Numbered from the stretch's first letter, positions 2,117 through 55,450 are shown. The stretch is DNA of 64,000 nt from Minisyncoccota bacterium (GCA_020628915.1 JAHDEI010000003.1:1859-65858), one strand, 5' to 3'. The notes: generated from the letters alone by a model not told the origin. Made by a program: numbers and translations.

Positions 2117-2124
2117 TCTCGTAC

Positions 2125-3370: not shown

Positions 3371-3372
3371 TA

Positions 3373-3966
3373 ATGGAGCAAAACGCCCCACAGTTATCTG
3401 ATGAACAAATCATGTCACGCATCACGGCGGAGCCTGATTTATATGGAATTATTATTGATCGATATACAGATAAATTATCTCGTTATATCAAAAGAGTCTC
3501 GGGGCTTGTTGGTGACGAACTAGACGACGTACTACAGGATGTATTCGTCCGCGCATATCAAAAACATACCTCGTTTGACCCAAGCCTTTCTTTTAATTCT
3601 TGGATTTATCGGATTTGTCACAATACAACCATAAATTATTGGAAGAAAAACCGTAGATACAAAGAAGGAGTTTCGTTTGATGAAGAAACCTACACTAAGT
3701 CTGGCTTTCTAGATCATGTGTTGGCGGACGATACAACGTTTGAGGGGATTATGAGAGACGCTGATATTGCGATAATCCGAGATGCGTTGGGGGGCATCAA
3801 AGAAAAGTATCGATCGATTCTGGTCCTTAGATTTTTTGAAGAATTAGACTATGGGCAGATATCAGATGTTCTCAAGATTCCACCTGGAACTGTCGCAACC
3901 AATATTCATCGCGCCAAGAAGGCATTAGCCAAGGAAGTAACATTACTAGAACAACCTAAAAAATAA
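3373..3966 (+). CDS. ECF-type RNA polymerase sigma-70 family factor (copy 2, paralog of 2125..2721).
   Basis: IIDRYTDKLSRYIKRVSG...FNSWIYRICHNTTINYWKKNRR...LDYGQISDVLKIPPGTVATNIHRAKKAL. Confidence 0.8.
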   Translation: MEQNAPQLSDEQIMSRITAEPDLYGIIIDRYTDKLSRYIKRVSGLVGDELDDVLQDVFVRAYQKHTSFDPSLSFNSWIYRICHNTTINYWKKNRRYKEGVSFDEETYTKSGFLDHVLADDTTFEGIMRDADIAIIRDALGGIKEKYRSILVLRFFEELDYGQISDVLKIPPGTVATNIHRAKKALAKEVTLLEQPKK

Positions 3967-23100: not shown

Positions 23101-23155
23101 CTCAGCGTCACAGGATGTGTGTCCTGTCTGATGAGTCCAAAAGGACGAAACGCAG
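23101..23155 (+). ncRNA. Type III hammerhead self-cleaving ribozyme (copy 1).
   Basis: Helix III 5-prime strand and GUC cleavage triplet at 23104-23109 (predicted cleavage after C23109). Helix I hairpin acagga-ugugug-uccugu (23110-23127). CUGAUGA (23128-23134). Stem II gucc-aaaa-ggac (23135-23146). GAAA (23147-23150). Helix III 3-prime strand cgcag (23151-23155). A 10-bp hairpin (gaggacuccc...gggggucctc) lies immediately upstream. Confidence 0.75.
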
Positions 23156-23197
23156 TTGTTCATTTACATACAATATACGACAATGTTTTTAATGTAT

Positions 23198-28884: not shown

Positions 28885-29919
28885 ATGAAAAGACTAGCAA
28901 TTGTTTTGTGTTTTGTTTTTGCGCCAGCATTTGTTTCAGCACAACTGGTGCAACAAGACGTTTCAGTTGATATCACTCCTTCATCTCCTGAGCCGGGGGA
29001 TCGTATTTCTATTGTTATTGAATCATTTGCCGTCAGCCTTGATCGATCTCAGATTTCGTGGGTTCTGGATGGGGCTGTTGCTCAAAAGGCAGTCGGAGAT
29101 AAAGACTTTGGTTTTACCGCTGGTGCAATAGGAACTACACATGATTTAAAAATCGTAATTGAGACACCTGCATCCGGAACTATCACCAAAGAGGTGACCA
29201 TCAGGCCAGCGAGTGTTGATCTATTGTGGGAAGCCATTGATTCATATGTCCCACCTTTATATAAAGGAAAAGCATTAAATGCGCACGACAGTGGAGTTCG
29301 TGTTGCAGCCCTGCCGTATTTTGTTGATGGCGCCGGGAGACAAATAAATCCAGAATCACTTATTTATACATGGACCGTGAACAAAAAAGTTCAACAAAGT
29401 GCATCCGGATTTGGGAAAAATACATTTTCATTCCCTGGGCCTTCATTGTACCGAGATTCACTTGTAACCGTTGACGTTGAATCACCAGATGGATCGTGGA
29501 CAGCCAGGAGGTCTCTTAATTTAGAAGCACAACCTCCAAAAATTTTGTTTTATCAAAAAAATCCACTGTTTGGAATTGCACTACTGCGACCTTTTGATTC
29601 AGGGATAACTACACTGACCGAAGACGAGATGGTGGTCCGTGCAGAACCATATTTTTTCTCAGACATAACCAACAGGCAAGATGTTGATTATGATTGGCGA
29701 ATTGATGGAAAAGAAATTTTAACTATTGGAAACAGAAACGAAATTAACGTTCGGCGGCCTGAGGTTGGATCAGGGCGGTCAAGCATCTCACTTGAAATCA
29801 AACACATCAGAAAAATTCTACAGTTTGCAAGAAATTCATTCACCATGTTCTTTGACGATAGAGAGCCATCAGAACAGCCATCTGAAAATCTCGGAGACGT
29901 AAACTTCTTTGGAAACTAA
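28885..29919 (+). CDS. Secreted hypothetical protein (344 aa).
   Basis: Signal peptide MKRLAIVLCFVFAPAFVSAQ. Beta-rich composition. Confidence 0.5.
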   Translation: MKRLAIVLCFVFAPAFVSAQLVQQDVSVDITPSSPEPGDRISIVIESFAVSLDRSQISWVLDGAVAQKAVGDKDFGFTAGAIGTTHDLKIVIETPASGTITKEVTIRPASVDLLWEAIDSYVPPLYKGKALNAHDSGVRVAALPYFVDGAGRQINPESLIYTWTVNKKVQQSASGFGKNTFSFPGPSLYRDSLVTVDVESPDGSWTARRSLNLEAQPPKILFYQKNPLFGIALLRPFDSGITTLTEDEMVVRAEPYFFSDITNRQDVDYDWRIDGKEILTIGNRNEINVRRPEVGSGRSSISLEIKHIRKILQFARNSFTMFFDDREPSEQPSENLGDVNFFGN

Positions 29920-29949: not shown

Positions 29950-30537
29950 TTAGTTTCCAACAAACATGAATTGGAACATTTGTTGCCAGCTTTCTTTTTT
30001 AAATATCCATTTAATACTCGCTATTGCAACAAACATGCTCAAGCTTATCAAGCCTACAACAGTAGCCGTCACAGTGTTTACGAAAATACATATCACTCCA
30101 CAGAGGATTGTTGTTAACAAAACAGCCTCACGAGAGTTTAGTCCACCGAATATGCTGAAGGCTAGTATGGGTATCGCTGCACAGAAGCCGCCAACATAAA
30201 TACCAAATATTGCCATCAGTCCAATTGGAATTCCAAAGCAGATAAAAAGAATCCTATCTTTTGGGTTTACTTCGTTGGTGATTAATCCAAATTGATACCC
30301 CAAGAGAAACAAGCAGACGAAGCTCATGACTAGGTCAGCTGCCCAATTGTACGGAACCGGAGATGTGAACCAAATTTCACCATCAGCCACAAATGGGCTG
30401 TGTGCGGCAATATCAAACCCGGCTCTTTTTCCGATAAGAATCAATGCGAGGATTATAATTGATCCAAAGATAGACCAACGAACACCAAGGGTGCTTTCGC
30501 TGTTTTTTAGTTTCAAAAAGGTCATCATTCTCTCCAT
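29950..30537 (-). CDS. Polytopic membrane protein, hypothetical (195 aa).
   Basis: Five to six hydrophobic helices. Flanked by the two near-identical GC-rich terminator hairpins. Confidence 0.5.
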   Translation of the reverse strand: MERMMTFLKLKNSESTLGVRWSIFGSIIILALILIGKRAGFDIAAHSPFVADGEIWFTSPVPYNWAADLVMSFVCLFLLGYQFGLITNEVNPKDRILFICFGIPIGLMAIFGIYVGGFCAAIPILAFSIFGGLNSREAVLLTTILCGVICIFVNTVTATVVGLISLSMFVAIASIKWIFKKESWQQMFQFMFVGN

Positions 30538-30622: not shown

Positions 30623-30925
30623 CTACAAAATCATACTACCGTTCCATCCAGCCGCAGCAAAGCACAGTGTAGTAAGAATCACCTCGGAGAGATTTTCTTC
30701 TAGATCCTTCCGTAATCTCTCTTTTGTTGTGGAAACCAAGAATACGAGACCGATTATTAATCCAAGACTCATCCCAATTATCTGAAACATTAGTTTATTG
30801 TCTGCTGTGATTTCAATCGAGTTTATATTATAAGCAGTAGAGAGCACCGCGCTAAAAAAGAATGTCATGATTGCAAACATTGCCATGTAATAGAGCGTAC
30901 CTTTTAGTATTCGAGCCATCTTCAT
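30623..30925 (-). CDS. Small membrane protein, hypothetical (100 aa).
   Basis: Three TM helices. GGAG ribosome-binding site upstream. Confidence 0.4.
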   Translation of the reverse strand: MKMARILKGTLYYMAMFAIMTFFFSAVLSTAYNINSIEITADNKLMFQIIGMSLGLIIGLVFLVSTTKERLRKDLEENLSEVILTTLCFAAAGWNGSMIL

Positions 30926-31015: not shown

Positions 31016-33829
31016 ATGCCTCCGGGAGCTCCAAAATTTAACAAAGCAGAACGAATCAATACACCAAAACAAGAATTAGAGGTGTTTAAACAATCTGTCC
31101 AAGATACGATGGATCAAGTGTACGGACGCTCTTTTGAGGAGACTCCGGCGTCTATTCAACACGATGTTGTTAAAAAGGCATTGGACGAACACTTTGATGC
31201 GTTTATAGATAACAAATTCTCTAATCCATTTGATAAGCAAAAGCAGGCTGAAAAAATTGTTCTTGAGCTAACTCCAGATGAAGATGATGACAAGATGGGA
31301 GAACTTTTGGGATTAATTCATGAGGTAGGAATTATCTCAACACTCAAGGTAATCGAAAAGACTGCGTCATTTCATGTCAAAGATGACCTGCACAGAATGC
31401 TAGTTCAATACATTAAAGAAGGGTATCCAGTCAAAGACCTTTCTGAAAAATCTCCTATCACACCAGGGCTCAACATGACGTTGTTCGAGATTTATCTTCC
31501 TGAAAAAGAACAAGATCCTGAAGAAAAAAAGAAGGACCTGAAAACCCTCCTTTCTTCGATGGAGCAGTTTTACGCTGGGATGCGTTCGGTTGCTGATGCG
31601 AAACATCCTGACAACTATCTCTCTGTAGAGGTTGCCTTGCCGCAGGGTCGTGACGAAATTGTTTTTTATTGTGCTGTGCCTGACTCAAAGGTGTCTATTT
31701 TGCGCAGTCAACTGATTGCTATTTTCCCAGGAATCAAAATCATCGAATCAACAGATGACTATAATATTTTTAATAAAAAAGAACACATTGCCGCATCCGT
31801 TGCTGAATTAAAAAAAGTGGACCTGCTGCCAATCAAATTGTACGAAGAATTTGATTATGATCCACTTAACATTATCTTAGAGTCGTTTTCTTCGTTGCAG
31901 CGTGAAGAAGGGGCATCGGTGCAGATCATGCTTTCCCCTGATGAAGAACAAATCTCAGATCGAATTTACAAAGCAATCGAACGGCTAGAAAAGGGTGAGC
32001 CTATCGAAGACGCACTGGTACTCAAAGATTCAATGTTCCGTGGTTTTTCAAAGGCGATGTCTGGTGCATTTGATAACAGATCAAAAGAACAAAAAGAAAA
32101 AGACGAAATCAAGAAAAAAGAACTAGCTGGCCGGACCGACAGGCGCGAATTAATTGACGCACTGCAGAAGAAAAATTCAGGATCACTATTTAGAACAAAC
32201 GTGCGGATTATCACAGCGGGTAATTCAGATGCCCACGCAGAAGCAATCCTTTCCGGGATCGAATCGTCATTTAATCAGTTCGAAAACACAACAGGAAACC
32301 GATTTGTATTTGATAGAAAGAAAAAAGGAGAGTTGCGTCGAGTGATCCAAAACTTTACGTTCCGTGTGTTTAATAAGCGTGATCTGATGCATCTCAACAC
32401 AAGAGAGCTGACTACTATGCTTCACTTCCATGCGAAACCAGAATCAGGGTCTGATCTTCTTAAGACCTCGAATTCATCTAGTTCAGGTGCTTCGGTTAAA
32501 ACCATTTCTCAATCAACTGATACTCATGGGCTGGTTACTCCTGGAAAAATTTTGTTGGGAATCAACAAGCACCAAGGATCCGAGAACAGAATTTTTATGA
32601 ACGCCAAGGATCGTGTCAGGCATATGTACATCATCGGACAAACTGGTACAGGTAAGTCTGGTCTTTTGCAGAACATGGTGATCCAAGACATTAAAAATGG
32701 AGACGGGTGTTGCTTCATCGACCCCCATGGATCTGATGTCCAAGATATTTTGGCAAATATTCCTCCTGAACGGTATGAAGACGTGATTTACTTTGATCCT
32801 GCAGATCTTGACCGACCAATGGGCATGAATATGCTCGAGTACGACCCAGCATACCCAGAACAAAAGACGTTTGTTGTAAACGAACTCCTTTCGATCTTCA
32901 GGAAACTGTATGGCTCAGTTCCAGAATCTATGGGTCCAGCATTTGAGCAATATTTCCGAAACGCAACAATGCTTGTGATGGAGGATCCAGCATCTGGAAA
33001 TACCATGTTCGAAATTTCTCGCGTACTGTCTGATCCTGCATTCCGTGCACTCAAATTGGCTCGATGTAACAACATGGTTGTGAAACAATTTTGGGAGAAA
33101 ATTGCGACTCAGGCAGGGGGGGACGCTGCTTTGGAAAATATTGTTCCGTACATCACTAACAAATTTGATGTATTTATGGCGAATGATTTTATGCGACCAA
33201 TTATCGCGCAAGAGCAATCGGCGTTTAATTTCCGCGATATTATGGACAATAAAAAGATCTTGTTGGTGAACCTTTCAAAGGGTCGATTAGGCGAGCTAAA
33301 CTCGAATATGATTGGTCTGATCATTGTTGGAAAGATTTTGATGGCAGCGCTGTCTCGGGTAACCTCGCTTGACCAAGACCTGCCACCGTTCTATTTATAT
33401 ATTGATGAGTTCCAAAACATTACAACCGATTCGATTTCTCAGATTCTGTCTGAAGCTCGGAAATACGGACTCTCGCTCAACGTTGCTCACCAGTTTATTA
33501 AACAGTTGGACGAAGGAATTCGGGATTCTGTATTTGGTAACGTTGGATCAATGGCGTCATTCCGTATCTCAGCCGAAGATGCAGAATTTATGGAAAAATA
33601 TTTTGCACCAGCATTCACAGCAAAAGATATTATGAATATCGAGAACTTTAACGCGTATGTAAAAATGCTTGTTAACGGGTCTCCTGAGAAACCATTTAAT
33701 ATCGCAACCATCGCACCACCACAAGGTAACCCAGCAATTCGTGACGAGATCAAGAAACTCTCAGCTCTCAAATATGGAAAACCACGCGCAGAAATTGAAG
33801 CACTGGTCCAAAAGAAATTTATGCTTTAA
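31016..33829 (+). CDS. Large ATPase of the TraD/TraG/VirD4 coupling-protein type (TrwB_AAD_bind / AAA_10-like), with a unique N-terminal domain of about 500 aa.
   Basis: Walker A MYIIGQTGTGKSGLLQNM...CCFIDPHGSD, Walker B LYIDEFQNI, and a TraG-D_C-like segment SEARKYGLSLNVAHQFIKQLDEGIRDSVFGNVGSMASFRIS. The protein is 937 aa. Confidence 0.55.
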   Translation: MPPGAPKFNKAERINTPKQELEVFKQSVQDTMDQVYGRSFEETPASIQHDVVKKALDEHFDAFIDNKFSNPFDKQKQAEKIVLELTPDEDDDKMGELLGLIHEVGIISTLKVIEKTASFHVKDDLHRMLVQYIKEGYPVKDLSEKSPITPGLNMTLFEIYLPEKEQDPEEKKKDLKTLLSSMEQFYAGMRSVADAKHPDNYLSVEVALPQGRDEIVFYCAVPDSKVSILRSQLIAIFPGIKIIESTDDYNIFNKKEHIAASVAELKKVDLLPIKLYEEFDYDPLNIILESFSSLQREEGASVQIMLSPDEEQISDRIYKAIERLEKGEPIEDALVLKDSMFRGFSKAMSGAFDNRSKEQKEKDEIKKKELAGRTDRRELIDALQKKNSGSLFRTNVRIITAGNSDAHAEAILSGIESSFNQFENTTGNRFVFDRKKKGELRRVIQNFTFRVFNKRDLMHLNTRELTTMLHFHAKPESGSDLLKTSNSSSSGASVKTISQSTDTHGLVTPGKILLGINKHQGSENRIFMNAKDRVRHMYIIGQTGTGKSGLLQNMVIQDIKNGDGCCFIDPHGSDVQDILANIPPERYEDVIYFDPADLDRPMGMNMLEYDPAYPEQKTFVVNELLSIFRKLYGSVPESMGPAFEQYFRNATMLVMEDPASGNTMFEISRVLSDPAFRALKLARCNNMVVKQFWEKIATQAGGDAALENIVPYITNKFDVFMANDFMRPIIAQEQSAFNFRDIMDNKKILLVNLSKGRLGELNSNMIGLIIVGKILMAALSRVTSLDQDLPPFYLYIDEFQNITTDSISQILSEARKYGLSLNVAHQFIKQLDEGIRDSVFGNVGSMASFRISAEDAEFMEKYFAPAFTAKDIMNIENFNAYVKMLVNGSPEKPFNIATIAPPQGNPAIRDEIKKLSALKYGKPRAEIEALVQKKFML

Positions 33830-33866
33830 GATAGTCTTCCAAAAGGGCTATTTTATTATATAAGTT

Positions 33867-33896
33867 TGACGATACGTCAATAAAATTATATTATGC
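33867..33896 (+). promoter_or_regulatory. Sigma-70-like promoter for the 565-aa orphan gene.
   Basis: TTGACG, a 17-nt spacer, then TATTAT. A CAAGGAGAATAGA ribosome-binding site precedes the ATG at 33928. Confidence 0.45.
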
Positions 33897-33927
33897 GTTA
33901 AGCTTAGATCATTACAAGGAGAATAGA

Positions 33928-35625
33928 ATGACACAAAGTATTCCAAGAGCGCTCGCATTTCATCACCAAGGTGGCGTAATGGAGCAGTTCAGGGTCGCCA
34001 AGAAATTTGGTGGACCAAACGGACGTGTAGCTACTGTTGAAGACATAGTTGATGCACGAATTGCTACTAAAGACCGGTGGGGTTTCCCATGGACAGGTAC
34101 ATTCGTTACTGGGTCACGCGTATATAGTGGGACTAGTAAAGCCGGTGTTCCTTTGTTGGTATTTGCCCATAAAAAGCAGCCAGAACTTGATTCGTACCAT
34201 GAACTTAATCGTTTAGATTGGGAAAATGATGACGTGGGGACTATTAAAGATTGGGCCATCTCACAAGATAAATTTGAGGACTTGATTAATGGTGTCTATG
34301 GTGATGTACATATTGTCGATCTCTCGACATACAAAAATAATTCTGTAGGTAATTCCGCATCAAATCGTTATAAATTTGCTGAAGCCATGGAAAACCCAAT
34401 TATTTTAGGTTTTCTCGGCAGCAAAGCAAAAGAATTTTTGATGACACTACATCAAATGCAACAATCTTGGCTATCGAGACAAAAGCAGGAAGTGCGGGAT
34501 AGTACCGTTATTATGTGCTCTCGCTTATATGATTTCTATATGCGTCATACTAATGCAGGTGAAAAGTATTTCGCATCTAGTGGATATGCAAAGGTGAGAC
34601 CTTTGACGTTTGAAGATGCAGTATTCTACATACCTGATAATAGACATGGTGAACGAATAAATCGGACGACATACGGTCCTGATTTCGGTTGCGCCACTAG
34701 TAGTGGCATTGATGATCTCATATTCAGTCCGTATTACGTCGTGGGAGTTAAAGGCTCTGATCCGATTACTTCAATCGAGCGGCCATTCATTCAGGTCGTT
34801 GGAAATGTGAAAGAGCAGTGGGAACACTTTGTGGAACCAGTTCCAGAAGGTATAGATATTATTGATACGTATACAGGAGTTCAACCCGATGGTTCCAGAG
34901 ATAGACCTTATTACCTGCCTTTTCGTTGGGGAGGTGGAGCACTTGCTTCGTCTCGGATAACAGAGAATGGTGCTGCATCAAACATTCCAGAGTTTCGCCT
35001 TCTCAAAAAAGAAAGAGTAAAATCTAAAGAGGTGGAGTATTCTTGTTCTAGTCGAGAGTATCAGTACCCTTATGTAGATATGTGGGATGCGTGTGTTAAG
35101 GCCATGCCGGAAGAAGCTAACGCAATGAGCTTTGGAGGATCACGAGGAGGAGGTAGTACTCATGGTGTGAATGCGACCAGTACTATCTTTTGGAATGTTG
35201 AGGTAGAAGAGAATCCCTTTAAATTTCTTATGAAATGTGGAGACCGTTTGTTTACTCAGTATTCAGATGAAGACAAGTTAACAAGTCAACCTTGTCAGCT
35301 TGTTGAAAAGAGTCGAGTGATTAAAAGACGCAAAAGATGGGAAATTCCTGAAGAAATTTATCGCTTGACTGATGGGTGCAGAGATATGTGGCCTGTGTAT
35401 GCATATCTTATGGATCAATCTCCAAAAGAAGCAAATTCAGTTTACATTGAAGATAAGTCGGTAGGTTGGGTTGAAAAAAAGAGCAGAAATGTAATGAAAG
35501 TTACAGTCGCTTATTATTATTCAATTTACGGTGACGTTTATTTTCGTCCATTCTCTGTTATTCGTGAAGATGCTGATTGGCAGCTCGAGAGACGCGCGCA
35601 AGCAGGGCTACTCGAAGCAGCTTAG
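33928..35625 (+). CDS. Hypothetical protein (565 aa) with no recognisable motif.
   Basis: Own promoter and ribosome-binding site. A strong terminator (aaaccgacact-cgtat-agtgtcggttttt) follows at 35635-35665. Confidence 0.5.
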   Translation: MTQSIPRALAFHHQGGVMEQFRVAKKFGGPNGRVATVEDIVDARIATKDRWGFPWTGTFVTGSRVYSGTSKAGVPLLVFAHKKQPELDSYHELNRLDWENDDVGTIKDWAISQDKFEDLINGVYGDVHIVDLSTYKNNSVGNSASNRYKFAEAMENPIILGFLGSKAKEFLMTLHQMQQSWLSRQKQEVRDSTVIMCSRLYDFYMRHTNAGEKYFASSGYAKVRPLTFEDAVFYIPDNRHGERINRTTYGPDFGCATSSGIDDLIFSPYYVVGVKGSDPITSIERPFIQVVGNVKEQWEHFVEPVPEGIDIIDTYTGVQPDGSRDRPYYLPFRWGGGALASSRITENGAASNIPEFRLLKKERVKSKEVEYSCSSREYQYPYVDMWDACVKAMPEEANAMSFGGSRGGGSTHGVNATSTIFWNVEVEENPFKFLMKCGDRLFTQYSDEDKLTSQPCQLVEKSRVIKRRKRWEIPEEIYRLTDGCRDMWPVYAYLMDQSPKEANSVYIEDKSVGWVEKKSRNVMKVTVAYYYSIYGDVYFRPFSVIREDADWQLERRAQAGLLEAA

Positions 35626-35733
35626 TTATCTATTAAACCGACACTCGTATAGTGTCGGTTTTTCTTTTATGGGAAAAGTTGGCAGCGTTAATTTTTTGCT
35701 GAATGCTATAATGCTCAAAATTAGAATCTACTT

Positions 35734-37710
35734 ATGAAACTTAATCCCAAGCAGCAAGAGGCAGCATCAATCCTATCCGGCCCCGTTTTGGTATTGGCTG
35801 GTGCCGGCGCAGGAAAAACAAAGACACTAACCGAGCGAATTATTCGCTTGATTGAGTCAGGGGTCATGCCACAACATATTTTGGCGATTACATTTACTAA
35901 TAAGGCGGCTATGGAAATGAAAGATCGGGTACACACTGCAATCAAAAACAATCCCAAACTACAGTTTCCAGTATTTGAAGAAGGCTTTGTCCCATTTGTT
36001 TCTACCTTTCATGCACTCGGGGTAACAATTCTTCGCGAGCAATACAAAGTTTTGGGTGTTTCAAAATATTTTTCAATTTATGACAGACAAGACTCACGTC
36101 GTGCCATCAAAGAGGCGGTGAAGAAAAACGATCTTGATCCAAAGGCGTGGGACACAAAAAAAATTCTTTCATTTATTTCAAAAAACAAAGGGAACGGAAA
36201 GAGGCTGGCAGATATAAACATGGAGGAAGATTCGTCATATCACCGGGATACCATGATTGCCATTTGGCGATCCTACGAAGCGATCAAGAGAGAGGATAAT
36301 GCGTATGATTTTGATGACCTCTTGCTTGAGACGGCGTATTTACTCAGAACAAACGAGCAAGTCAGAGAGCATTATCTGCGTCGGTGGAGCCATATCCACA
36401 TTGATGAATACCAGGATACAAACAAGGTTCAATATCAGATTGTTCGTGCTCTCACCAACAAGGAAACTAACGACATTTTTGCAGTAGGAGACCCAGACCA
36501 GCTGATTTATGGATGGCGAGGGGCAAAGATTTCAAATATTATGCGATTTGAAAAAGACTTTCCGGGAACCGTATCCGTAATCCTCGAGCAAAATTATCGT
36601 TCTACTAAATACATTATTGATGCATCAAACGCGGTTATTGAGAAAAATGAAAATAGGTTTCCTAAAAAGTTGTTTACTGAAAATGATCAAGGAGATTCGG
36701 TTGGAGTATATGCGGCATACGATGCAGCAGAAGAGGCAACATGGATTACTGAGAATATTCAAAATAAAATTAACGAGGGCGTAGATCCGGGTGAGATTGC
36801 GGTTTTGTATCGAGCAAATTTCCAGTCTCGAATTTTGGAAGAAGCATGTCTTAAAAATGATATTCCTTATCAAGTGTTAGGAACAAAATTTTATGATCGA
36901 GCAGAGGTAAAAGATGTTCTCGCCTATGTCCAGGCTGCATTGAGTCCAGATTCATTGATTCACGTAAAGCGTGTGATTAACATGCCAAAGAGGTCGCTTG
37001 GTAAGACTTCAGTTTTGAAAATTTTTGCTGGCAAAGAAGATGAATTAACACCACGAGCAAAAAAATCTCTTGAGCAGTTTAGAGAAATTCTCTCAAACAT
37101 TAAACAATTTATTGATAATGGCTATCCTCCTAGTGAGGTCATCTCACATGTAATTGCAGTTTCTGGGATGGAAAAAATGTTCCGCGACTCTAAAAAGGAG
37201 GAAGACCTCGAGAGGATCGCAAACATGTATGAGCTTTCTGAAGTTGCATCAAAATACGATACGTTTCCTCCAGAAGATGGCCTTATGAGATTTTTAGAGG
37301 AGGTTGCTCTTGCTTCAGACCAGGATTCAAAAGATGATTCCAAGCCAATGGTCAAACTGATGACCATTCATGCTGCCAAAGGACTTGAGTTTGATACTGT
37401 TTTTGTTTCAGGATGTGAAGAATCTTTATTCACGCCGCAACCTGGTTTGGATCAAAAAGCTAGCGATGAAAAAGCCGAAGAAGAAAGGAGGCTTTTCTAC
37501 GTAGCAATGACACGAGCAAAAAACAAATTATATTTGTCGTGGGCGTCAGTCCGTATGGTATATGGATCTCAAGAAGTCAATTTAATTTCATCATTTATTT
37601 TAGATATTCCAGAAGAATGTTTAAGTGAAGAAAACGTTGGATTCTCATTTACCAATAATCGACTGATGGGTGACGATGACGAAGAGGCGATCATCTATCT
37701 TGATTTTTAA
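35734..37710 (+). CDS. UvrD/PcrA/Rep-family ATP-dependent DNA helicase.
   Basis: Motif I LVLAGAGAGKTKTLTERI and the ILAITFTNKAAMEM box. DEYQDTN (Walker B / motif II), VGDPDQLIYGWRGA, YRS, and C-terminal TIHAAKGLEFDTVFVSG plus LFYVAMTRAK. Confidence 0.85.
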   Translation: MKLNPKQQEAASILSGPVLVLAGAGAGKTKTLTERIIRLIESGVMPQHILAITFTNKAAMEMKDRVHTAIKNNPKLQFPVFEEGFVPFVSTFHALGVTILREQYKVLGVSKYFSIYDRQDSRRAIKEAVKKNDLDPKAWDTKKILSFISKNKGNGKRLADINMEEDSSYHRDTMIAIWRSYEAIKREDNAYDFDDLLLETAYLLRTNEQVREHYLRRWSHIHIDEYQDTNKVQYQIVRALTNKETNDIFAVGDPDQLIYGWRGAKISNIMRFEKDFPGTVSVILEQNYRSTKYIIDASNAVIEKNENRFPKKLFTENDQGDSVGVYAAYDAAEEATWITENIQNKINEGVDPGEIAVLYRANFQSRILEEACLKNDIPYQVLGTKFYDRAEVKDVLAYVQAALSPDSLIHVKRVINMPKRSLGKTSVLKIFAGKEDELTPRAKKSLEQFREILSNIKQFIDNGYPPSEVISHVIAVSGMEKMFRDSKKEEDLERIANMYELSEVASKYDTFPPEDGLMRFLEEVALASDQDSKDDSKPMVKLMTIHAAKGLEFDTVFVSGCEESLFTPQPGLDQKASDEKAEEERRLFYVAMTRAKNKLYLSWASVRMVYGSQEVNLISSFILDIPEECLSEENVGFSFTNNRLMGDDDEEAIIYLDF

Positions 37711-44661: not shown

Positions 44662-47082
44662 TTGTATATGAAACAAGGAACATTGAAAAACTGGCCACCT
44701 CAAAATACTTCTTCAGATGAATCTGAAGACAAGAAATCTCTTTTTGAGGGTGTAGTTGATGTGGTTAAGAACGCGCCAAGTATCCTCAAGACTGTTGGTA
44801 AAGAGTATGCAAAAACAGCAATTGGGTTAAATGCGTATCGTGGGTGGAAACAGTATGCAAAATCGCGTACTGCTTTTAACCGTAGTGAAGATGTTTTGGC
44901 GGAGCTACTTGAGAGCAGAAAGTCTTTTTTAGAAAAAACGGCTGACAATATCGATATGTCTGGTACAGAATCTTATCTTTCGAGTAAAGATGATTTTCGC
45001 TCAAAGCTTGCAGAGCTGCGCGAATTAAACAAATCTTTAGATAAAGAAAAATACGCAGATCAACGATCACGTATCGCATCTGTTTTGGCTGAATATAGAT
45101 CGCATAAAGAATCAGTACGAAATGATGTAGCTGAACGCCTATCTGACGAAAAAAGAAAAGACGCATTAGAAGCAGGGCGTCAGACTGCTTCGTTTGGCTT
45201 GTCTGCTGCTGTACTAACAGGATTTGGTGGTGCTGGAACAATAGCAGCGGGCCTCGGTTCACGTGCGGGATTTGATGGACTCATTAGACAAACAAAACTA
45301 GCGATGGAAAAAGGAGATACAGGCTGGAAAAATGTATTTATCGGGGGTGTGCAAGAGACGTTCAAGGCGGCTAAAGAGGGAGATACAACAGCAATCGCAA
45401 GAATCGCTGGGTATGGTATTTCCGGAACCATGCTTGCTGATGCGGCTGGGTTGGATGGTGCAATCAGAGAAAGTGTGGTCAAAGGCGTCTCAGGTGTTCT
45501 TGGTGGGGCTGCAGACGTCATCACTCCTTCTGCTCATGCAGCCAGCCCAGAAGATTTTATGCCAGGGCAGCACACAAAACAATTTGAAACAAGTACGAGC
45601 GGAGATCCAATTGCGTCAGTGCCTGACGCAGAGGTTGCACAAGCAACGAAGGGTCCAGCACCTGAGGTGGCACCAGATGCAGCTCCATCTGCTAGACCAG
45701 AAAATACTCCATTCTCTACTGATCTAGCCGGGTATCAAGACCCTCTTGAATCAAGACTAGATAACGGATATGTTCCTGAGTCGGAGACTCCAGAATCAGC
45801 TGACGCTGCTGCAGAAATCTCATCAGAAGACGCGGCTCAGATAGAGCAATTAGCAAAACTCGACGATATCTCAGTTGAGATTCCTAAGGGCGAGGGAGGT
45901 GTCATGCTTGTAAAGATGTTGCGAGCAGATTTAGCCGAAGCATATGGATTTGAACTAGGCGATGACATGCAGGTTCCAGACGACGCCCCAGATGTTGTTA
46001 AAGAACTATTTAAAGACGACCTTCTAAAAACAGCAGAAAAGCTTGGTTTTTATGATCCATCAGGCATGGGCAATGACGGAGCTGAGAGTTTTATGTTTAA
46101 TGAAAAAGCAACTCTTTCTTTCCAAGAAGGGCAATTAAAATTGGTAAACCCAGACGATGGAGACTATTTGCTAACAAGACCTGGCGAGGACGGAGAAGTT
46201 GTGTTTGAAAAAGACGACCTAAAGGCTCGAATGTTTGATTACGAGAGAAATCTTAAGGTACCAGATGTCGATCCCGTAATTAGTGAAGGGAGGGTGGTTT
46301 CGAGCGAAGGAGTTCTTGTGGACTCAGGATTGAGTACAAGAGACGTTTTTGAAGCTCCAGCCTATGGTTCTTCTAGGTATGCACCTGGCACGTATTATGT
46401 CGACGGAGACACGGGACAAGAATTTTTGTATGCAGACAAAGGAGGTCCATCTGGGAACCTGTATAGTCCGGAATTCCAATCTAGTCCAGCAAGTAATCCG
46501 TCTCCACTTGAGCAAACTAGCGGCAATACAAGTGCACAAGAATATATAAAACCAAACCCAACACAATCAGCTATCCCTGAGCAACCTCAGACCGTGAGAC
46601 AACAAGTTATCCAAGGTGCCATTGAGGGCTCACGCGACAATTTTAATGAAGGCATTAATACCATTCGAGATGCGGGAGAAAGGGTTATTGAAGAAGGTAA
46701 AACGTTGTTTGATAGGTATGACGTACCTGATCGCATGCGTGGCGCTGCAGAATACATTCAGAATCACACGACAGATAGGAACTTCGTGATGTTTGATGAG
46801 ACTCAGTTGCCAAAAGAGCATTTTGGAAACGTGGAGAAGGTTATCAATAATCAGACCCAATATTTGAAATTTACTACCTCCGACGGTTCTCGAATTGGGC
46901 TGACCTCGTTTGTTGACCCAACTGGTCGACCAGGGTTTGATGTATTTGAATTTCCTTCTACATACAGTCAGCAAGATATCGCTGAAAAAGGACCATTAAA
47001 ATTAGGTGAATTTTTTGATTCAGATCCAAAGATCGGACTCTATTCAGCACTTGATACAGTAGCCTTAAGACTAGGAAGATAA
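44662..47082 (+). CDS. Large hypothetical protein (806 aa) with a Gly-zipper-like hydrophobic segment.
   Basis: Long ORF. Segment GLSAAVLTGFGGAGTIAAGLGSRAGFDGL and later GYGISGTMLADAAGLDGAI. Acidic and Pro-rich middle region. Confidence 0.5.
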   Translation: MYMKQGTLKNWPPQNTSSDESEDKKSLFEGVVDVVKNAPSILKTVGKEYAKTAIGLNAYRGWKQYAKSRTAFNRSEDVLAELLESRKSFLEKTADNIDMSGTESYLSSKDDFRSKLAELRELNKSLDKEKYADQRSRIASVLAEYRSHKESVRNDVAERLSDEKRKDALEAGRQTASFGLSAAVLTGFGGAGTIAAGLGSRAGFDGLIRQTKLAMEKGDTGWKNVFIGGVQETFKAAKEGDTTAIARIAGYGISGTMLADAAGLDGAIRESVVKGVSGVLGGAADVITPSAHAASPEDFMPGQHTKQFETSTSGDPIASVPDAEVAQATKGPAPEVAPDAAPSARPENTPFSTDLAGYQDPLESRLDNGYVPESETPESADAAAEISSEDAAQIEQLAKLDDISVEIPKGEGGVMLVKMLRADLAEAYGFELGDDMQVPDDAPDVVKELFKDDLLKTAEKLGFYDPSGMGNDGAESFMFNEKATLSFQEGQLKLVNPDDGDYLLTRPGEDGEVVFEKDDLKARMFDYERNLKVPDVDPVISEGRVVSSEGVLVDSGLSTRDVFEAPAYGSSRYAPGTYYVDGDTGQEFLYADKGGPSGNLYSPEFQSSPASNPSPLEQTSGNTSAQEYIKPNPTQSAIPEQPQTVRQQVIQGAIEGSRDNFNEGINTIRDAGERVIEEGKTLFDRYDVPDRMRGAAEYIQNHTTDRNFVMFDETQLPKEHFGNVEKVINNQTQYLKFTTSDGSRIGLTSFVDPTGRPGFDVFEFPSTYSQQDIAEKGPLKLGEFFDSDPKIGLYSALDTVALRLGR

Positions 47083-47699: not shown

Positions 47700-47735
47700 C
47701 TCTTAACCAGTTTCGGACCCAGTCAAATGGGTCCG

Positions 47736-47788
47736 TTCTGTCTGAAGATGTGTATCTTCACTGATGAGTCCAAAAGGACGAAACAGAA
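47736..47788 (+). ncRNA. Type III hammerhead self-cleaving ribozyme (copy 2).
   Basis: Helix III 5-prime strand uucug (47736-47740), then U47741 and the cleavage nucleotide C47742 (GUC). Perfect 7-bp helix I ugaagau-gugu-aucuuca (47743-47760). CUGAUGA (47761-47767). Stem II gucc-aaaa-ggac (47768-47779). GAAA (47780-47783). Helix III 3-prime strand cagaa (47784-47788), fully complementary. Confidence 0.8.
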
Positions 47789-47941
47789 TGTTCTTTGAAA
47801 TCATAAACAAGTATAGAGTTTATGAATCGGCCCCCATGTACATTGATGTGTATATAGGAGCCGATTCAATGTAGTCCGATCGGCATCGCCCAATCGGGCT
47901 ACTCAAAACTTATATTTAGCTTAGAAAAGAAGGAGACGCAC

Positions 47942-49400: not shown

Positions 49401-49428
49401 TGACATATATTATATTTCTGGTATAATG
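49401..49428 (+). promoter_or_regulatory. Strong sigma-70-like promoter of the giant surface protein gene, with additional promoter-like elements upstream.
   Basis: TTGACA at 49401-49406, a 17-nt spacer, then TATAAT at 49424-49429. Upstream there is a TTGACT-N17-TATAAA element (49310-49338) containing the short palindrome ttgac-tttat-gtcaa. Confidence 0.45.
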
Positions 49429-49485
49429 ATCTCACAATTATTGTTAATTGTATTGATTATAAATAAATTTTTAAAACAAAATTTT

Positions 49486-52389
49486 ATGAAAAGCATTATT
49501 AAATCACTAATCGTTCTTGCAGCAGGAGCATCAATGGCGTTTGCGTCTATTGCTTCAGCAGCTGCATTTAACGGTTTCGCAAATGACCTTGATGTTTTGC
49601 ACGTAACAACTACTCGTGCTTCAAACTCATCTTGGGCAAAAACTGCAACAGTGAATGACGGGGACATCGTAAGTTTCAACATTTACTACCATGTTACTTC
49701 ACAAGATGCAGCAAACGATGTAAAGGCGCGAATTACGAATCTTACATCAGGAACTGTAAATGGTTCTAAAACAGTTACAGGTACTATGTCAGCTGCAAAC
49801 GCTGCATCAGTATCAGGATCTGTTTCGATCAACACTTCAGAAGAAATGGAATTCACTTTGTACAAAGTGATGTGGCAACCAAACAAATGTAACGTTGCTA
49901 GCTGTGCACAACAAGTGCTAAATAGTCCATCTTCTGTACTATCATCTGGTGCATCAATTGGAACAATCCAAGGTGTAGCAGGACTTGATTCATCAAACAA
50001 CTTTAAATACCAAGGTAACGTAGTTGTTGAATTCAAGGCAAACGCTGTCGAAGACACACCAGTATTCGTAGCACCAACAGTAGATACTCGAACTGAATCA
50101 AACGTTACTACTACATCAGGAGTAATGAACGGATCAGTTGACCTATCTACATCAGTAGATTCAGGAATTGTGTACTTTATCTGGGGAACTTCTTCAAGCA
50201 ACCTACAATACACAACTCCTTCACAATCAGTTTCATCTGACCAAAACTTCAATCAAGCAGTTTCAGGTCTACAAGATGACACTACTTACTACTACCGAGC
50301 AGTTCTACGAGGAGATGACGGACAAACTTATACAGGTGACCTAGAATCTTTCCGAACTGACGCTGATTCAGTATTCGTGGCTCCAACCGTGGACACACGA
50401 ACAGAATCAAACGTAGATACAGATTCAGCTACTCTTAATGGATCAGTTGACCTATCTACATCAGTAGATTCAGGAATTGTGTACTTTATCTGGGGAACTT
50501 CTTCAAGCAACCTACAATACACAACTCCTTCACAATCAGTTTCATCTGACCAAAACTTCAATCAAGCAGTTTCAGGTCTACAAGATGACACTACTTACTA
50601 CTACCGAGCAGTTCTACGAGGAGATGACGGACAAACTTATACAGGTGACCTAGAATCTTTCCGAACTGACGCTGATAACCCAACTTCAAACAACGTTGAT
50701 ATCGACACAAACGCTGCATCATCAATTGATGACGACTCAGCTCGACTAAACGGTGATGTTGAGGAGGGAGATAACCAAGATGTATGGTTCGCGTTCTCAC
50801 GAACAGACTCTACACCTTCATGTTCATCTTCATCACAACGAGTTGACGTATCAGGAGTATACGATTCAAACGAAGATTTCTCTGCAATTGTACGAAATCT
50901 AATTGCGAACGAAACGTACTACTTCCGAGCTTGTACTCTTGATGAAAACGGAGAGGTACTTTCAGCGCAAATTCGACAGTTTACAACTGACGAAGAAGAC
51001 AACGGGAATAATAATGATCCTGCAGCAGAAGTTGATACTAATGCAGCAACATCAGTGGATGAAGATTCAGCACGACTTAATGGTGATCTAGAAGAAGGAG
51101 ATAATGCAACTGTATGGTTCGCAATCTCATCTGTAGACACTACACCTTCATGTTCATCTTCACTACAACGAGTATCTGTTTCTGGAGTATACGACCAAGG
51201 AGATGATTTCTCACGAATCGTAACTGGACTTTCAGAAAACACTAAATACTACTTCCGATCATGTGCATTGGGAGAAGATGGGGACACAGTATCAGGTTCA
51301 ATCCGAACATTTGTTACTGACGAGGATGATAATCCTACAAACCCACCAACATCAGTTAACCCTGACACTATTACACGATTACCTTCAGGAATTACTTCTA
51401 GCACGGCTACACTTAATTCATATGTAATCGGTAACGGAACAGGAACATGTTACTTCCAATACGGTACTTCTGCTGGATTTGGATCAGTAACTCCGGCTCA
51501 AACGGTTAACCTTGATAACACTTCAACATGTTCATCAACCCGGTTTAATCTACAGCCGAATACAACATACTACTACCGATCAGTACTAGTAGATGGAGGT
51601 CAAACTTACTACGGTCTAACACGTTCATTCCGAACAAATGCGAACGCAGTAGTTACTACTCCTTCTACTCCTACAGTTGTCACTACTCCTACACGAGTAA
51701 TCACACGAACTGTAACAGCACCTGCTGCACCGGTTGTGGACGACACAGTAACAGTACGAGTTGTTGAAGAAACTACACGAGTAGCTGACCAACCACTTGA
51801 AATTACTAAATGGGTATCTGCGGAAACTGATCCAGAATTTGTACGAGTTACAGAAGCTGATCGAGACGAAGCAGTATTCTACAAAGTACGAGTAACTAAC
51901 AATACTGACGAAGACCTTGAAGATGTTGTAGTTATCGACCGAATTCCATTTGATCTAGAATTGGATGGACAAGAATCACTTGATGATGATTCATACAAGG
52001 AAGTTCGATGGAACATCCGATCTCTAGAGGCTGGAGAATCAAAAACATTCATTACTGAAATGCGAGTACGTGATGACGTTGACTTCGGAGACCGAATCGA
52101 CTCATACGCAACAGCATTCAATGATGAATACAATGTAGATTCAAACAATGTAGTGATCGAAATTGAAGAAGAACGAGTAGCATCTGCTTCTGACGAAGAA
52201 GTTGATGGATCTCAAGCAGCTTCAATCTTCGGTGCTGGGTTCTTCCCAACGACACTACTAGGATGGTTGATTCTACTAGCGATCGTATTGGCAATTGCAT
52301 ACCTAGTTTCTCGAATTTTCTTCTCTCGAAATGAGAATGAGCGAGTTCTAGCAGAACTACGAGCAATGCAACAAGTAAATCGAGGATAG
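49486..52389 (+). CDS. Large cell-surface protein (about 968 aa). It has a signal peptide, tandem Ig/Fn3-like repeats, a DUF11-like conserved repeat domain and a C-terminal TM anchor.
   Basis: Signal peptide MKSIIKSLIVLAAGASMAFASIASAAA (ATG at 49486, in frame within track ORF 49426). Repeated modules of about 100 aa (..NGSVDLSTSVDSGIVYFIWGTSSSNLQYTTPSQS..TTYYYRAVL..SFRTD). A C-terminal DUF11-like segment (EITKWVSAETDPEFVRVTEADRDEAVFYKVRVTNNTDEDL). Terminal hydrophobic anchor LLGWLILLAIVLAIAYLV. Confidence 0.65.
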   Translation: MKSIIKSLIVLAAGASMAFASIASAAAFNGFANDLDVLHVTTTRASNSSWAKTATVNDGDIVSFNIYYHVTSQDAANDVKARITNLTSGTVNGSKTVTGTMSAANAASVSGSVSINTSEEMEFTLYKVMWQPNKCNVASCAQQVLNSPSSVLSSGASIGTIQGVAGLDSSNNFKYQGNVVVEFKANAVEDTPVFVAPTVDTRTESNVTTTSGVMNGSVDLSTSVDSGIVYFIWGTSSSNLQYTTPSQSVSSDQNFNQAVSGLQDDTTYYYRAVLRGDDGQTYTGDLESFRTDADSVFVAPTVDTRTESNVDTDSATLNGSVDLSTSVDSGIVYFIWGTSSSNLQYTTPSQSVSSDQNFNQAVSGLQDDTTYYYRAVLRGDDGQTYTGDLESFRTDADNPTSNNVDIDTNAASSIDDDSARLNGDVEEGDNQDVWFAFSRTDSTPSCSSSSQRVDVSGVYDSNEDFSAIVRNLIANETYYFRACTLDENGEVLSAQIRQFTTDEEDNGNNNDPAAEVDTNAATSVDEDSARLNGDLEEGDNATVWFAISSVDTTPSCSSSLQRVSVSGVYDQGDDFSRIVTGLSENTKYYFRSCALGEDGDTVSGSIRTFVTDEDDNPTNPPTSVNPDTITRLPSGITSSTATLNSYVIGNGTGTCYFQYGTSAGFGSVTPAQTVNLDNTSTCSSTRFNLQPNTTYYYRSVLVDGGQTYYGLTRSFRTNANAVVTTPSTPTVVTTPTRVITRTVTAPAAPVVDDTVTVRVVEETTRVADQPLEITKWVSAETDPEFVRVTEADRDEAVFYKVRVTNNTDEDLEDVVVIDRIPFDLELDGQESLDDDSYKEVRWNIRSLEAGESKTFITEMRVRDDVDFGDRIDSYATAFNDEYNVDSNNVVIEIEEERVASASDEEVDGSQAASIFGAGFFPTTLLGWLILLAIVLAIAYLVSRIFFSRNENERVLAELRAMQQVNRG
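50061..50666 (+). repeat. Tandem direct duplication (2 x about 306 bp) inside the surface-protein gene. The 3-prime 225 bp of each unit is 100% identical.
   Basis: Sequence from ggatcagttgacctatctacatcagtagattcaggaattgtgtactttatctgg ... to ttccgaactgacgctgat occurs twice (about 50135-50365 and 50441-50666). This is mirrored by two antisense track ORFs with identical N-termini. Confidence 0.8.
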
Positions 52390-54009: not shown

Positions 54010-54909
54010 TTAGTTATTATGAAATTTTTTGTGAATTTCTTTCAGGTGTTTGTCGGACAGATTGGTGTATACCTGGGTGGTATTAATAGATGCATGACCG
54101 AGCAGCATTTGCACGGATCTGATGTCTGCGCCATTTTGCAGCAAATCTGTTGCAAAATAATGTCTCATGGTATGAGGAGTCACATGTTTAGTGATTCCCG
54201 CTTGGACAGCTCGTTTTTTTAAAATGCGCTGAACCATACGAGGGTAGATGCGTTCACCGGAGGAAGAGACAAATAGTGCTTCAGAGAGGACTTTCTTTTT
54301 CCCTTCATGGCGCTTTTTTAGATATCGCGTAACTGTAGATTTTGCTGCTTCGGAGAGAAATACGATGCGTACTTTTTCACCTTTCCCCCTGATAGAGAAT
54401 TCATCTGAAGAAAGATCAAGATCTTCATTAAGTGAGCATAGCTCAGAGACACGCAAACCTGTTGAATACAGCATTTCTAATATTGCTTTGTCACGCAGGT
54501 CTTCGATTTCAGATCCAGATGGTGCAATCATGAGTCTTTGAAATTCAGTGCGCGAGATTAAGTCTAGTTCGCGTTGTGCAGTTTTTGCAAGCTCAATTTT
54601 TTCAGGAGCTAACGTTGAGATGTCATTTTTTGCCAAGAATTTAAGGAACGATCTGAGTGCAATCAAGTGATAATTTTGTGTACGTCGAGACATGGTATCA
54701 CCTCGTTTGTTTACTGTTTGCCTATTGAGCCACAGTCTATATTCACGTACCAAAGGCAGGGTGATGTCTCCGGGAGACGCAATTTCAGCATGAGAGAAAA
54801 ACTTGGATAAATAACGATCATAATTCTCAATTGTTTTTAAAGAACGACCTTTTTCAATCTCAAGATATTCTAGAAATTCTCGTTTATGGCCAGTAATATT
54901 GTGCGACAT
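54010..54909 (-). CDS. Tyrosine site-specific recombinase, XerC/XerD-like.
   Basis: N-terminal core-binding domain (FLEYLEIEKGRSLKTIENYDRYL). Catalytic RHRY tetrad with C-terminal HTMRHYFATDLLQNGADIRSVQMLLGHASINTTQVYTNL. Start taken at the ATG at 54909 (MSHNITGHK). The track ORF extends further into a hydrophobic out-of-context N-terminus. Confidence 0.8.
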   Translation of the reverse strand: MSHNITGHKREFLEYLEIEKGRSLKTIENYDRYLSKFFSHAEIASPGDITLPLVREYRLWLNRQTVNKRGDTMSRRTQNYHLIALRSFLKFLAKNDISTLAPEKIELAKTAQRELDLISRTEFQRLMIAPSGSEIEDLRDKAILEMLYSTGLRVSELCSLNEDLDLSSDEFSIRGKGEKVRIVFLSEAAKSTVTRYLKKRHEGKKKVLSEALFVSSSGERIYPRMVQRILKKRAVQAGITKHVTPHTMRHYFATDLLQNGADIRSVQMLLGHASINTTQVYTNLSDKHLKEIHKKFHNN

Positions 54910-54988
54910 TAACAGTAAGTATACCAGGCAAACATTTTGAAAAACAAATATTTTTACATATAGTAATACATAGATAGTTTTATGGAGC

Positions 54989-55450
54989 ATGGTTATGGCT
55001 AATGTCACTGATATAACAGACACCTTAAAAGAAAAGAAACGGAATAGAGATAGTGTTTTTTTTCATATGGCCATGGATATTAAGGCGGGCAGATCAGTTG
55101 ATCCAAAAAAAAGAAACAGGGTTGCTCTTGCTTTGAGCTGCTCTGTAGATATTGGGGATCAGCTGTCGGTTTCGCTTGATGTGTTTAACGATTTGAAAAG
55201 TGGAATTGTAGACATCATCAAAATGCCAGAGAGCTTGGTGGGAGGCAATTTTCGATATATTCCGTTCATGCAAGTAGAAACAGTTGTTTGCGAGGTCCTA
55301 AATTTTCCAAATGACAAAGAGAAAAGAGATGCTTTTGAGACACTTTTTCTGCAAGTAAAAGACAAGCATAAAGACAAGGTGAAGAATTTTTGGTTTTCGT
55401 TTGATCCACTCACTGATGATCAAATTAAAAGACCACAAACTGACACATAA
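54989..55450 (+). CDS. Hypothetical protein (about 150 aa), divergent from the recombinase gene.
   Basis: A terminator (actgacac-ataacg-tgtcagttttt) overlaps its stop codon at 55438-55466. Confidence 0.4.
   Translation: MVMANVTDITDTLKEKKRNRDSVFFHMAMDIKAGRSVDPKKRNRVALALSCSVDIGDQLSVSLDVFNDLKSGIVDIIKMPESLVGGNFRYIPFMQVETVVCEVLNFPNDKEKRDAFETLFLQVKDKHKDKVKNFWFSFDPLTDDQIKRPQTDT

Follow-up and report, generated by a model that had tools for sequence, protein, structure and literature searches.

Three adjacent genes on the + strand of a 64-kb stretch of DNA from a Minisyncoccota bacterium (GCA_020628915.1 JAHDEI010000003.1:1859-65858; the whole stretch is called the window here) encode a 937-aa ATPase, a 565-aa protein and a 658-aa helicase. 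An earlier note on this DNA had proposed that they work together as an apparatus for DNA translocation, uptake or a conjugation-like process. Our analysis gives a different picture, which we consider probable: three independent transcription units that lie side by side by chance. Each of the three proteins is a typical member of a family that is known but has been little characterised. For the ATPase, a member of the DUF8128 family, we suggest a role in nucleic-acid translocation that would not depend on a type IV secretion system.

Gene layout and synteny

The ATPase gene, the 565-aa gene and uvrD are three separate transcription units. Their open reading frames (ORFs) were found as predicted, at 31016-33829, 33928-35625 and 35734-37710 (937, 565 and 658 aa), all on the + strand. 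The 565-aa gene does have the promoter that had been postulated for it, a promoter-like site at 33866-33894 (+) that reads TTGACG-17-TATTAT (10/12 matches), and an AAGGAG ribosome-binding site follows at 33916-33921 (+). An intrinsic terminator with an 11-bp stem and then a T-run (35635-35661, +) closes this gene, and uvrD has a TGnTATAAT-like −10 element of its own upstream.

Conservation of the arrangement was surveyed in the best 80 of at least 590 loci carrying a relative of the ATPase, one per species, with 6 kb on each side. UvrD adjoins the ATPase in one of these 80 loci and the 565-aa gene does so in none. The order miaA, secreted ~345-aa protein, ATPase, a further gene, uvrD, ksgA is kept in the closest relatives only, which by ATPase identity are L001 and L002 (80%), L009 (79%) and L003 (56%). 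The genes run side by side in the same direction in the window and also in L001, L003 and L009, where some gene likewise separates the ATPase from UvrD, and the two flanking enzymes are DNA-acting or related to enzymes of that kind, but this middle gene encodes an unrelated, different protein in each close relative. Each of the three genes has its own promoter, a strong terminator stands between the 565-aa gene and uvrD, and members of the 565-aa family also occur away from both partners, on a small plasmid-like circle and at other chromosomal sites. On synteny, therefore, we reject the three-gene apparatus, which is barely credible: the row of genes is not a functional unit, there is no synteny beyond very close relatives, and because the grouping is coincidental the trio is of no importance as an apparatus.

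Sequence signatures of the 937-aa ATPase

The product of the ATPase gene (31016-33829, +) combines DUF8128 with a P-loop ATPase of the VirD4/VirB4 clade. Its RecA-like core, which contains an all-helical insertion, spans aa 511-900 (32546-33715, +). The features on which the original reading of this protein was based are present: the Walker A motif GQTGTGKS (aa 541-548, nt 32636-32659, +) is followed by FIDPHG, and the TraG-D_C-like segment is matched by PF12696 at aa 791-834 (25.7 bits, cut-off 22). The Walker B motif is FYLYIDEF (aa 792-799, nt 33389-33412, +). PF10412 (TrwB_AAD_bind) scored 29.1 bits against a cut-off of 20.5, confined to aa 529-577, and the Pfam scan gave no match of the protein to PF02534 (T4SS-DNA_transf). 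The best NCBIfam models were those of type IV coupling proteins (T4CPs), SXT_TraD (E = 6e-12) and the CD1115 VirD4-like model (E = 2e-8). Curated T4CP models scored well below their cut-offs (TIGR03743, 44.8 vs 366 bits; NF045973, 33.3 vs 250; TIGR03754, 32.7 vs 647), each matching across just ~60 aa and not over its full length. The HerA and FtsK models stayed below threshold as well (DUF87, 19.9 vs 23.2 bits; FtsK_SpoIIIE, 16.4 vs 24; HerA_Thermprot, 15.9 vs 800). As for VirB4, the PF03135 model (CagE_TrbE_VirB) gave no match and NF045975 (VirB4_plasma) reached E = 0.023 with 12.4 bits.

TrwB aligns to the ATPase at both Walker regions. With T4CP models ranked top and a TM-score of 0.65 to TrwB, the VirD4/TrwB-type class proposed earlier is retained, as opposed to HerA, FtsK or an unrelated AAA ATPase, and the core belongs to the VirD4/TrwB-VirB4 branch of the FtsK-HerA superfamily. 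NCBI names members of the family 'type IV secretory system conjugative DNA transfer family protein', 'TraM recognition domain-containing protein', 'DUF87 domain-containing protein' or 'ATP-binding protein', and the assignment therefore agrees with current automated annotation.

In an alignment of 49 diverse family sequences, G541, G544, G546, K547, D797, E798, R815, H825 and Q826 are invariant, and so are the N-terminal polar residues H120, D124 and R127. Mean identity of these members to the window protein is 68% in the ATPase half (aa 501-937) and 42% in the N-terminal half. The invariance of catalytic and N-terminal residues points to a catalytically intact, active enzyme under strong constraint along its full length.

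Predicted structure and the N-terminal module

The AlphaFold2 (AF2) model of the ATPase had a mean predicted local distance difference test score (pLDDT) of 78.7. In this model the N-terminal region (aa 1-510; 31016-32545, +), which precedes the P-loop, is made up of a helical bundle (aa 17-134) and two alpha/beta modules (~aa 150-330 and 390-470) separated by a charged, poorly conserved linker (aa 331-385). The all-helical insertion of the RecA-like core occupies aa 601-745, between Walker A and Walker B. The helical and alpha/beta domains are of the soluble type. A Kyte-Doolittle scan did not find an N-terminal transmembrane segment; the sole hydrophobic stretch, aa 761-785, lies within the core.

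The N-terminal half had been described as novel and without obvious similarity, and this part of the original reading did not survive. The precomputed Pfam annotation places PF26449 (DUF8128) on the identical database protein P0001 and on all 120 listed relatives, and the PHROG family phrog_5156 (function unknown) matches aa 167-930 with E = 8e-77 over 764/824 profile positions. The supposedly novel domain is therefore a catalogued DUF common to Patescibacteria and Bacillus phages. Our literature search found no paper on DUF8128.

When the model was compared with the PDB using Foldseek, the best E-values were obtained for full-length TrwK/VirB4 (1.6e-14, ~920 columns) at a TM-score of merely 0.23-0.30. 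Next best were the soluble domain of TrwB (3e-12, TM-score 0.65), HerA (6e-11, TM-score 0.52) and Cagbeta. A profile of the ATPase family detected TrwB alone among the PDB sequences, at the P-loop. The protein thus has in common with the TrwB/VirD4 T4CPs the Walker A and B motifs, a TraG-D_C segment of the RKxGxxxxxxxQxxxQL type and the RecA-like core with its helical insertion. In contrast to them it lacks the N-terminal transmembrane domain, carries the extra conserved ~500-aa N-terminal module, sits in a core chromosomal housekeeping context without neighbouring genes for a relaxase or a type IV secretion system (T4SS), and matches the T4CP models over ~50-aa stretches only. VirB4/TrwK resembles it in layout: within ~800-900 aa, a large soluble N-terminal domain precedes a TrwB-like ATPase domain.

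Distribution and phage relatives

A protein search that covered 5.8 billion (5.8e9) 90%-identity clusters returned at least 410 homologs of the ATPase, the best 120 of them ~50-80% identical over the full length. At least 590 relatives were found in the GTDB data with one genome per species, where 590 of 600 candidate stretches were confirmed; the architecture as a whole is kept at ~50% identity. All of the best 80 GTDB loci come from patescibacterial or unnamed metagenome-assembled genomes (MAGs), mostly of the Paceibacteria or Parcubacteria type. The window protein is a typical member of this family, which is near-universal in Paceibacteria-type Patescibacteria.

The best full-length relatives outside the family are viral. 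Bacillus phage G gp156 aligned to the ATPase model over 868 columns (Foldseek E = 7.5e-41, TM-score 0.51/0.56), followed by the protein of phage JL, and tblastn located relatives in 58 Bacillus and Geobacillus phage records at 20-26% identity. Like the ATPase, the phage proteins of this group (phrog_5156; phage G gp156, JL, CP-51, TP-84 and 0105phi7-2) consist throughout of an N-terminal module and an ATPase, are soluble and have no known function. They differ in their low identity, in leaving the first ~165 ATPase residues uncovered and in their location, which was the early or replication region of the genome in both phages examined (TP-84 and 0105phi7-2). A curator had labelled one phage homolog 'DNA helicase or translocase', with an HHpred match to the TrwK C-terminal domain.

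One MAG (CALRBL01) contains two near-full-length DUF8128 ATPase copies on different contigs (L012 and L031), with 55-85% protein identity. These copies are either true paralogs or the product of mixed strains, and they may relate to the ~2 T4CP homologs per genome reported for Patescibacteria (PMC12102498).

Genomic context of the ATPase gene

The window is chromosomal, with ~41% GC, and the homologs of its proteins are patescibacterial. Its housekeeping genes include cca, miaA, a peroxiredoxin gene, ksgA, clpP, a guaB-like gene and rpsF. VirB4/VirB6-like partners, for which the earlier note had proposed a synteny check, were found neither here nor in the relatives: domain scans of the ORFs in the 64-kb window found no VirB4, VirB6, VirB8, VirB3 or relaxase domain, and the 80 related loci contain no recurrent T4SS-like cluster or relaxase within 6 kb on either side. 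The most frequent neighbours in these loci are ndk downstream (27-28 loci) and map (22), adk (20) and secY (14) upstream, giving a typical order of secY-adk-map, ATPase, ndk. Judging from sequence reading and Pfam annotations, further neighbours resemble RNase J, a DUF2238 protein, PBP2, RmuC, Tgt and GatB/YqeY.

Upstream of the ATPase gene lies the gene for a secreted 344-aa protein (28885-29919, +), which is conserved directly upstream of the ATPase in L001 (61% identity), L003 (39%) and L009. It has no match in Pfam or NCBIfam and was not found at that position in genomes more distant than the close relatives. Between it and the ATPase are two small genes for proteins with multiple transmembrane segments, at 29950-30537 (−, 195 aa) and 30623-30925 (−, 100 aa). 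Their sigma-70-like promoters are perfect or nearly so (12/12 and 11/12 matches), GC skew is reversed locally, and both genes are absent from the equivalent spot in L001 and L003. The 195-aa protein gave a weak TrbD/VirB3-like match (E = 0.005) far under the cut-off, its gene is not conserved, and no virB3 was found adjoining the ATPase.

An 806-aa Pfam-less protein encoded downstream of ksgA (44662-47082) was considered as a patescibacterial VirB4 and rejected; it lacks a Walker A motif and did not match any NCBIfam model. Also rejected was a family-wide hypervariable slot for cargo or effector genes beside the ATPase. Unique genes account for 32% of the +1 positions in the 80 loci, compared with 21-51% at the other positions from −4 to +4.

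In several loci the +1 gene encodes a large protein of 740-1040 aa (L004 10772-13000, L083 8543-11665, L044 8749-11142, L069, L077 and L084). The N-terminus of these proteins is a charged coiled coil, they contain a hydrophobic segment rich in Gly/Ala, and a ~100-aa segment is weakly shared among them (BLAST E 1e-5 to 8e-9). None of the ~100-aa links among such large charged neighbours with transmembrane segments reaches a window protein, and the 806-aa protein, although similar in style, showed no detectable homology to them.

The 565-aa protein

The 565-aa gene (33928-35625, +) encodes a cytoplasmic protein in which no transmembrane helix was found. The statement that it contains no recognisable motif is correct for single-sequence, Pfam and NCBIfam searches, and single-sequence or narrow-profile searches of the PDB, PADLOC, PHROGs and plasmids were also without a match. 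It does not extend to the wider family. A 50-member profile of this family (positions 30-178) matched residues 23-162 of AvpA (PDB 5IOO) with E = 2e-7. AvpA is the C-type-lectin-fold variable protein of a diversity-generating retroelement (DGR) of Nanoarchaeota; its family is marked by the motifs GxxVVVYAH, HPxxxPFxG and RFxGV, and AvpA homologs outside DGRs have been reported (PMC5006420). The 565-aa protein has three corresponding motifs in the same order, GVPLLVFAH (aa 73-81), NPIILGFLG (aa 156-164) and YVVGV (aa 270-274), and 5IOO was the top Foldseek match of its AF2 model among 350k chains (probability 0.98, E = 0.018). We therefore assign the N-terminal ~280 aa to the AvpA-type C-type-lectin fold. 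Three points weigh against this assignment: the model, built from 4 sequences, is poor (pLDDT 46.7) and uninterpretable beyond its top match; a four-sequence profile of the 565-aa protein alone found nothing in the PDB; and the link to AvpA is transitive, leading from the window protein to the family profile and from there to AvpA. The C-terminal ~285 aa constitute a beta-rich domain of unknown fold.

The resemblance to AvpA does not include a retroelement. The 565-aa protein is twice as long as AvpA on account of the additional C-terminal domain, and it comes without a reverse transcriptase or a pair of template and variable repeats (TR/VR). No part of the 565-aa gene is repeated in the window, no reverse transcriptase domain was found among the scanned window ORFs, and repeats were likewise not found in four loci that carry relatives. 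The segment equivalent to the variable repeat is conserved among four close homologs (T[NS]SGIDDL). A DGR acting on this gene was therefore rejected, and we read the product as a predicted stand-alone accessory protein that would bind a ligand through its lectin fold.

Word-indexed searches of the 5.8e9 clusters returned three other 90%-identity clusters only, at 39-43% identity, whereas 238 relatives emerged when 1.8 billion representatives were searched exhaustively with HMMER. Of these, about 8 are full length; the others are ~430 aa long and have the first ~190 residues in common, sometimes extending to ~420. The wider family has no Pfam, PADLOC or PHROG match. A homolog with 43% identity, P0122, is encoded on the contigs L007 and L008 (ENA NODE_2947 and NODE_3556, 5751 bp, 51% GC). 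Two rotations of this sequence were recovered and there is a 55-bp terminal overlap, indicating a ~5.7-kb circle. The circle also encodes a rolling-circle Rep (REP_ORF2-G2P), a serine recombinase and a Shedu SduA nuclease (PADLOC E = 1e-30). Homolog P0125 adjoins a DEAD/ResIII helicase, an N6_N4 methyltransferase and a DUF5655 protein in a restriction-modification-like (R-M-like) cluster, and P0124 lies in another, patescibacteria-like chromosomal context.

In all relatives compared, the 565-aa protein is absent from the equivalent position, and in L001, L003 and L009 unrelated proteins of 514, 644 and 379 aa are found there, those of L001 and L003 being charged, helical and tail-anchored. The 565-aa gene is thus accessory, and sister genomes have unrelated genes in its place. 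Recent horizontal acquisition is not visible in its composition: its GC content (0.417) and its GC content at third codon positions (0.318) match those of its neighbours and the host genome.

An Obscuribacterales MAG (L092) contains, a few kb from a 440-aa AvpA-like member of the family, a tandem pair of paralogous ~435-aa hypothetical proteins (666-1979 and 2081-3388; 29-31% identical to each other). BLAST gave no relation between this pair and the family.

The 658-aa helicase

The third gene (35734-37710, +) encodes a superfamily 1A (SF1A) helicase of the UvrD/PcrA type, in agreement with the first description. UvrD-helicase (E = 3.6e-84) and UvrD_C (E = 5.5e-69) together cover its full length. 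TIGR01073 (pcrA) was the best NCBIfam model, with 642 bits over positions 4-642 of 725 and thus below its equivalog cut-off of 911. The PcrA, UvrD and Rep models gave 488-642 bits, all below their equivalog cut-offs. The domains are the same as in these SF1A helicases, and the C-terminus is shorter: the last ~80 residues of the PcrA model are missing. Relatives are alike in length (663 and 680 aa). The protein is the ordinary UvrD/PcrA repair and replication helicase of the genome.

Other features of the window

Two intergenic matches to the type III hammerhead ribozyme were found, at 47735-47789 (+) and 23102-23156 (+). The former scored 51.6 bits against an Rfam gathering score of 48.5 and the latter fell just under it (44.1 bits, E = 1.8e-8); the two sequences share ~79% identity across 56 nt (repeat D5). 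A gene at 49426-52389 (+) encodes a predicted surface protein of 987 aa with signal and anchor helices and matches of the Pur_ac_phosph_N, fn3 and DUF11 kind, and it contains internal 300-nt repeats, 93% identical, at 50060-50668 and 50704-51222. The tyrosine recombinase encoded at 54010-55023 (−) has Phage_integrase and SAM-like N-terminal domains (E = 3e-44) and could be XerC/D or the integrase of a mobile element.

Discussion

We suggest that the ATPase is most likely a cytoplasmic, T4SS-independent nucleic-acid translocase, that is, an exapted relative of the coupling proteins and not a conjugative coupling protein. It would be a soluble enzyme of two parts, the ~500-aa DUF8128 module and the RecA-like ATPase. 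Like its structural relatives it would assemble into a ring, and it would spend ATP on pumping a polymer, most probably DNA or another nucleic acid, through the central pore. This preference follows from the missing membrane anchor, the lack of T4SS or relaxase neighbours, the housekeeping contexts and the phage relatives that have no secretion system. We hold the specific claim that the protein acts in the cytoplasm independently of a T4SS tentatively, at somewhat less than an even chance.

Several considerations weigh against this reading. T4CP genes are frequently far from virB4 and soluble T4CPs are known; a T4SS role exerted through genes elsewhere therefore retains some probability. A soluble T4CP with a separate small membrane anchor is exemplified by TraJ/TraI of pIP501 (PMC12857230), so that the missing transmembrane domain lowers the likelihood of a coupling function without eliminating it. 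A match to the PADLOC model mad8, a component of the MADS defence system (aa 534-882, E = 5e-14), leaves some room for a defence-type role of such ATPases. Finally, the missing T4SS linkage agrees with a survey in which only 148 of 5,713 patescibacterial VirD4-type T4CP homologs were near virB4 (Quinonero-Coronel et al., 2025; PMC12102498), but the DUF8128 family is not confirmed to be among the homologs counted there.

The strongest competing explanation, which we consider rather unlikely, is that the ATPase is the true T4CP of a patescibacterial T4SS encoded elsewhere in the genome. It would dock through DUF8128 or a small membrane protein, the latter as has been proposed for TraJ/TraI of pIP501, and its substrates, effectors or nucleic acids, would be handed on to the VirB4 channel or taken over from there. 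T4CP-type signatures score highest and the fold is TrwB-like (TM-score 0.65). The Foldseek alignments to VirB4, which extend over the full length, contain a hint of a possible resemblance between the N-terminal part and the corresponding domain of VirB4, but the TM-scores to VirB4 reach only 0.23-0.30. Most patescibacterial T4SS loci lack a linked T4CP although T4CP homologs occur in 2,918 of 3,035 genomes (96%); yet these are more genomes than have VirB4 (2,417), and the T4CP homolog of Southlakia is dispensable although its T4SS is essential, the authors noting that exaptation cannot be ruled out (PMC12102498). The same study found ksgA often near patescibacterial virB4, and ksgA lies 0.7 kb downstream here, but no T4SS gene was found in the 64 kb of the window or within 6 kb on either side in the 80 relatives. 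In addition, full-length homologs occur in Bacillus phages, which have no T4SS.

We regard it as very unlikely that the ATPase belongs to a defence or conflict system or derives from a phage gene by domestication, in which case it could, for instance, be a motor for sensing or expelling foreign DNA with the neighbouring lectin-fold protein as variable sensor or accessory partner. The mad8 match, weak HerA and DndH matches in PADLOC, the phage homologs, the location of 565-aa relatives beside Shedu SduA and an R-M-like cluster, and the different genes beside the ATPase in close relatives of the window would fit, but near-universal conservation at a single locus with a 68% identical core in contexts of the ribosomal-operon type is the opposite of the patchiness of defence genes, the +1 position is no more variable than others, and the 565-aa family has neither a PADLOC nor a PHROG match.

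The 565-aa protein adds an AvpA-type lectin-fold protein outside a DGR to the evidence that this ligand-binding scaffold spreads as stand-alone cargo, as exemplified by the 5.7-kb rolling-circle element that also carries Shedu. The DUF8128 ATPase, whose core is 68% identical across classes, ranks with the most conserved large proteins in a huge lineage of uncultured bacteria, and is known to annotators just as a DUF or as a "T4SS DNA-binding domain protein". Unlinked T4CP homologs of Patescibacteria have been flagged in the literature as possibly exapted and none has been characterised; the Bacillus phage relatives (phrog_5156, gp156) offer a genetically tractable route to the function of this architecture. 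A broader and doubtful proposal is that the DUF8128 ATPase represents an uncharacterised, essentially universal nucleic-acid motor of nucleotide-auxotrophic epibionts of the Paceibacteria type, with an origin in common with the Bacillus phage proteins. Such a motor might supply the soluble coupling or feeding ATPase that is missing from their T4SS, a system that is essential but whose function is unexplained. Or it might work independently of the T4SS, as a translocase processing DNA or RNA imported from the host; the frequent location of its gene between adk and ndk would agree with this.

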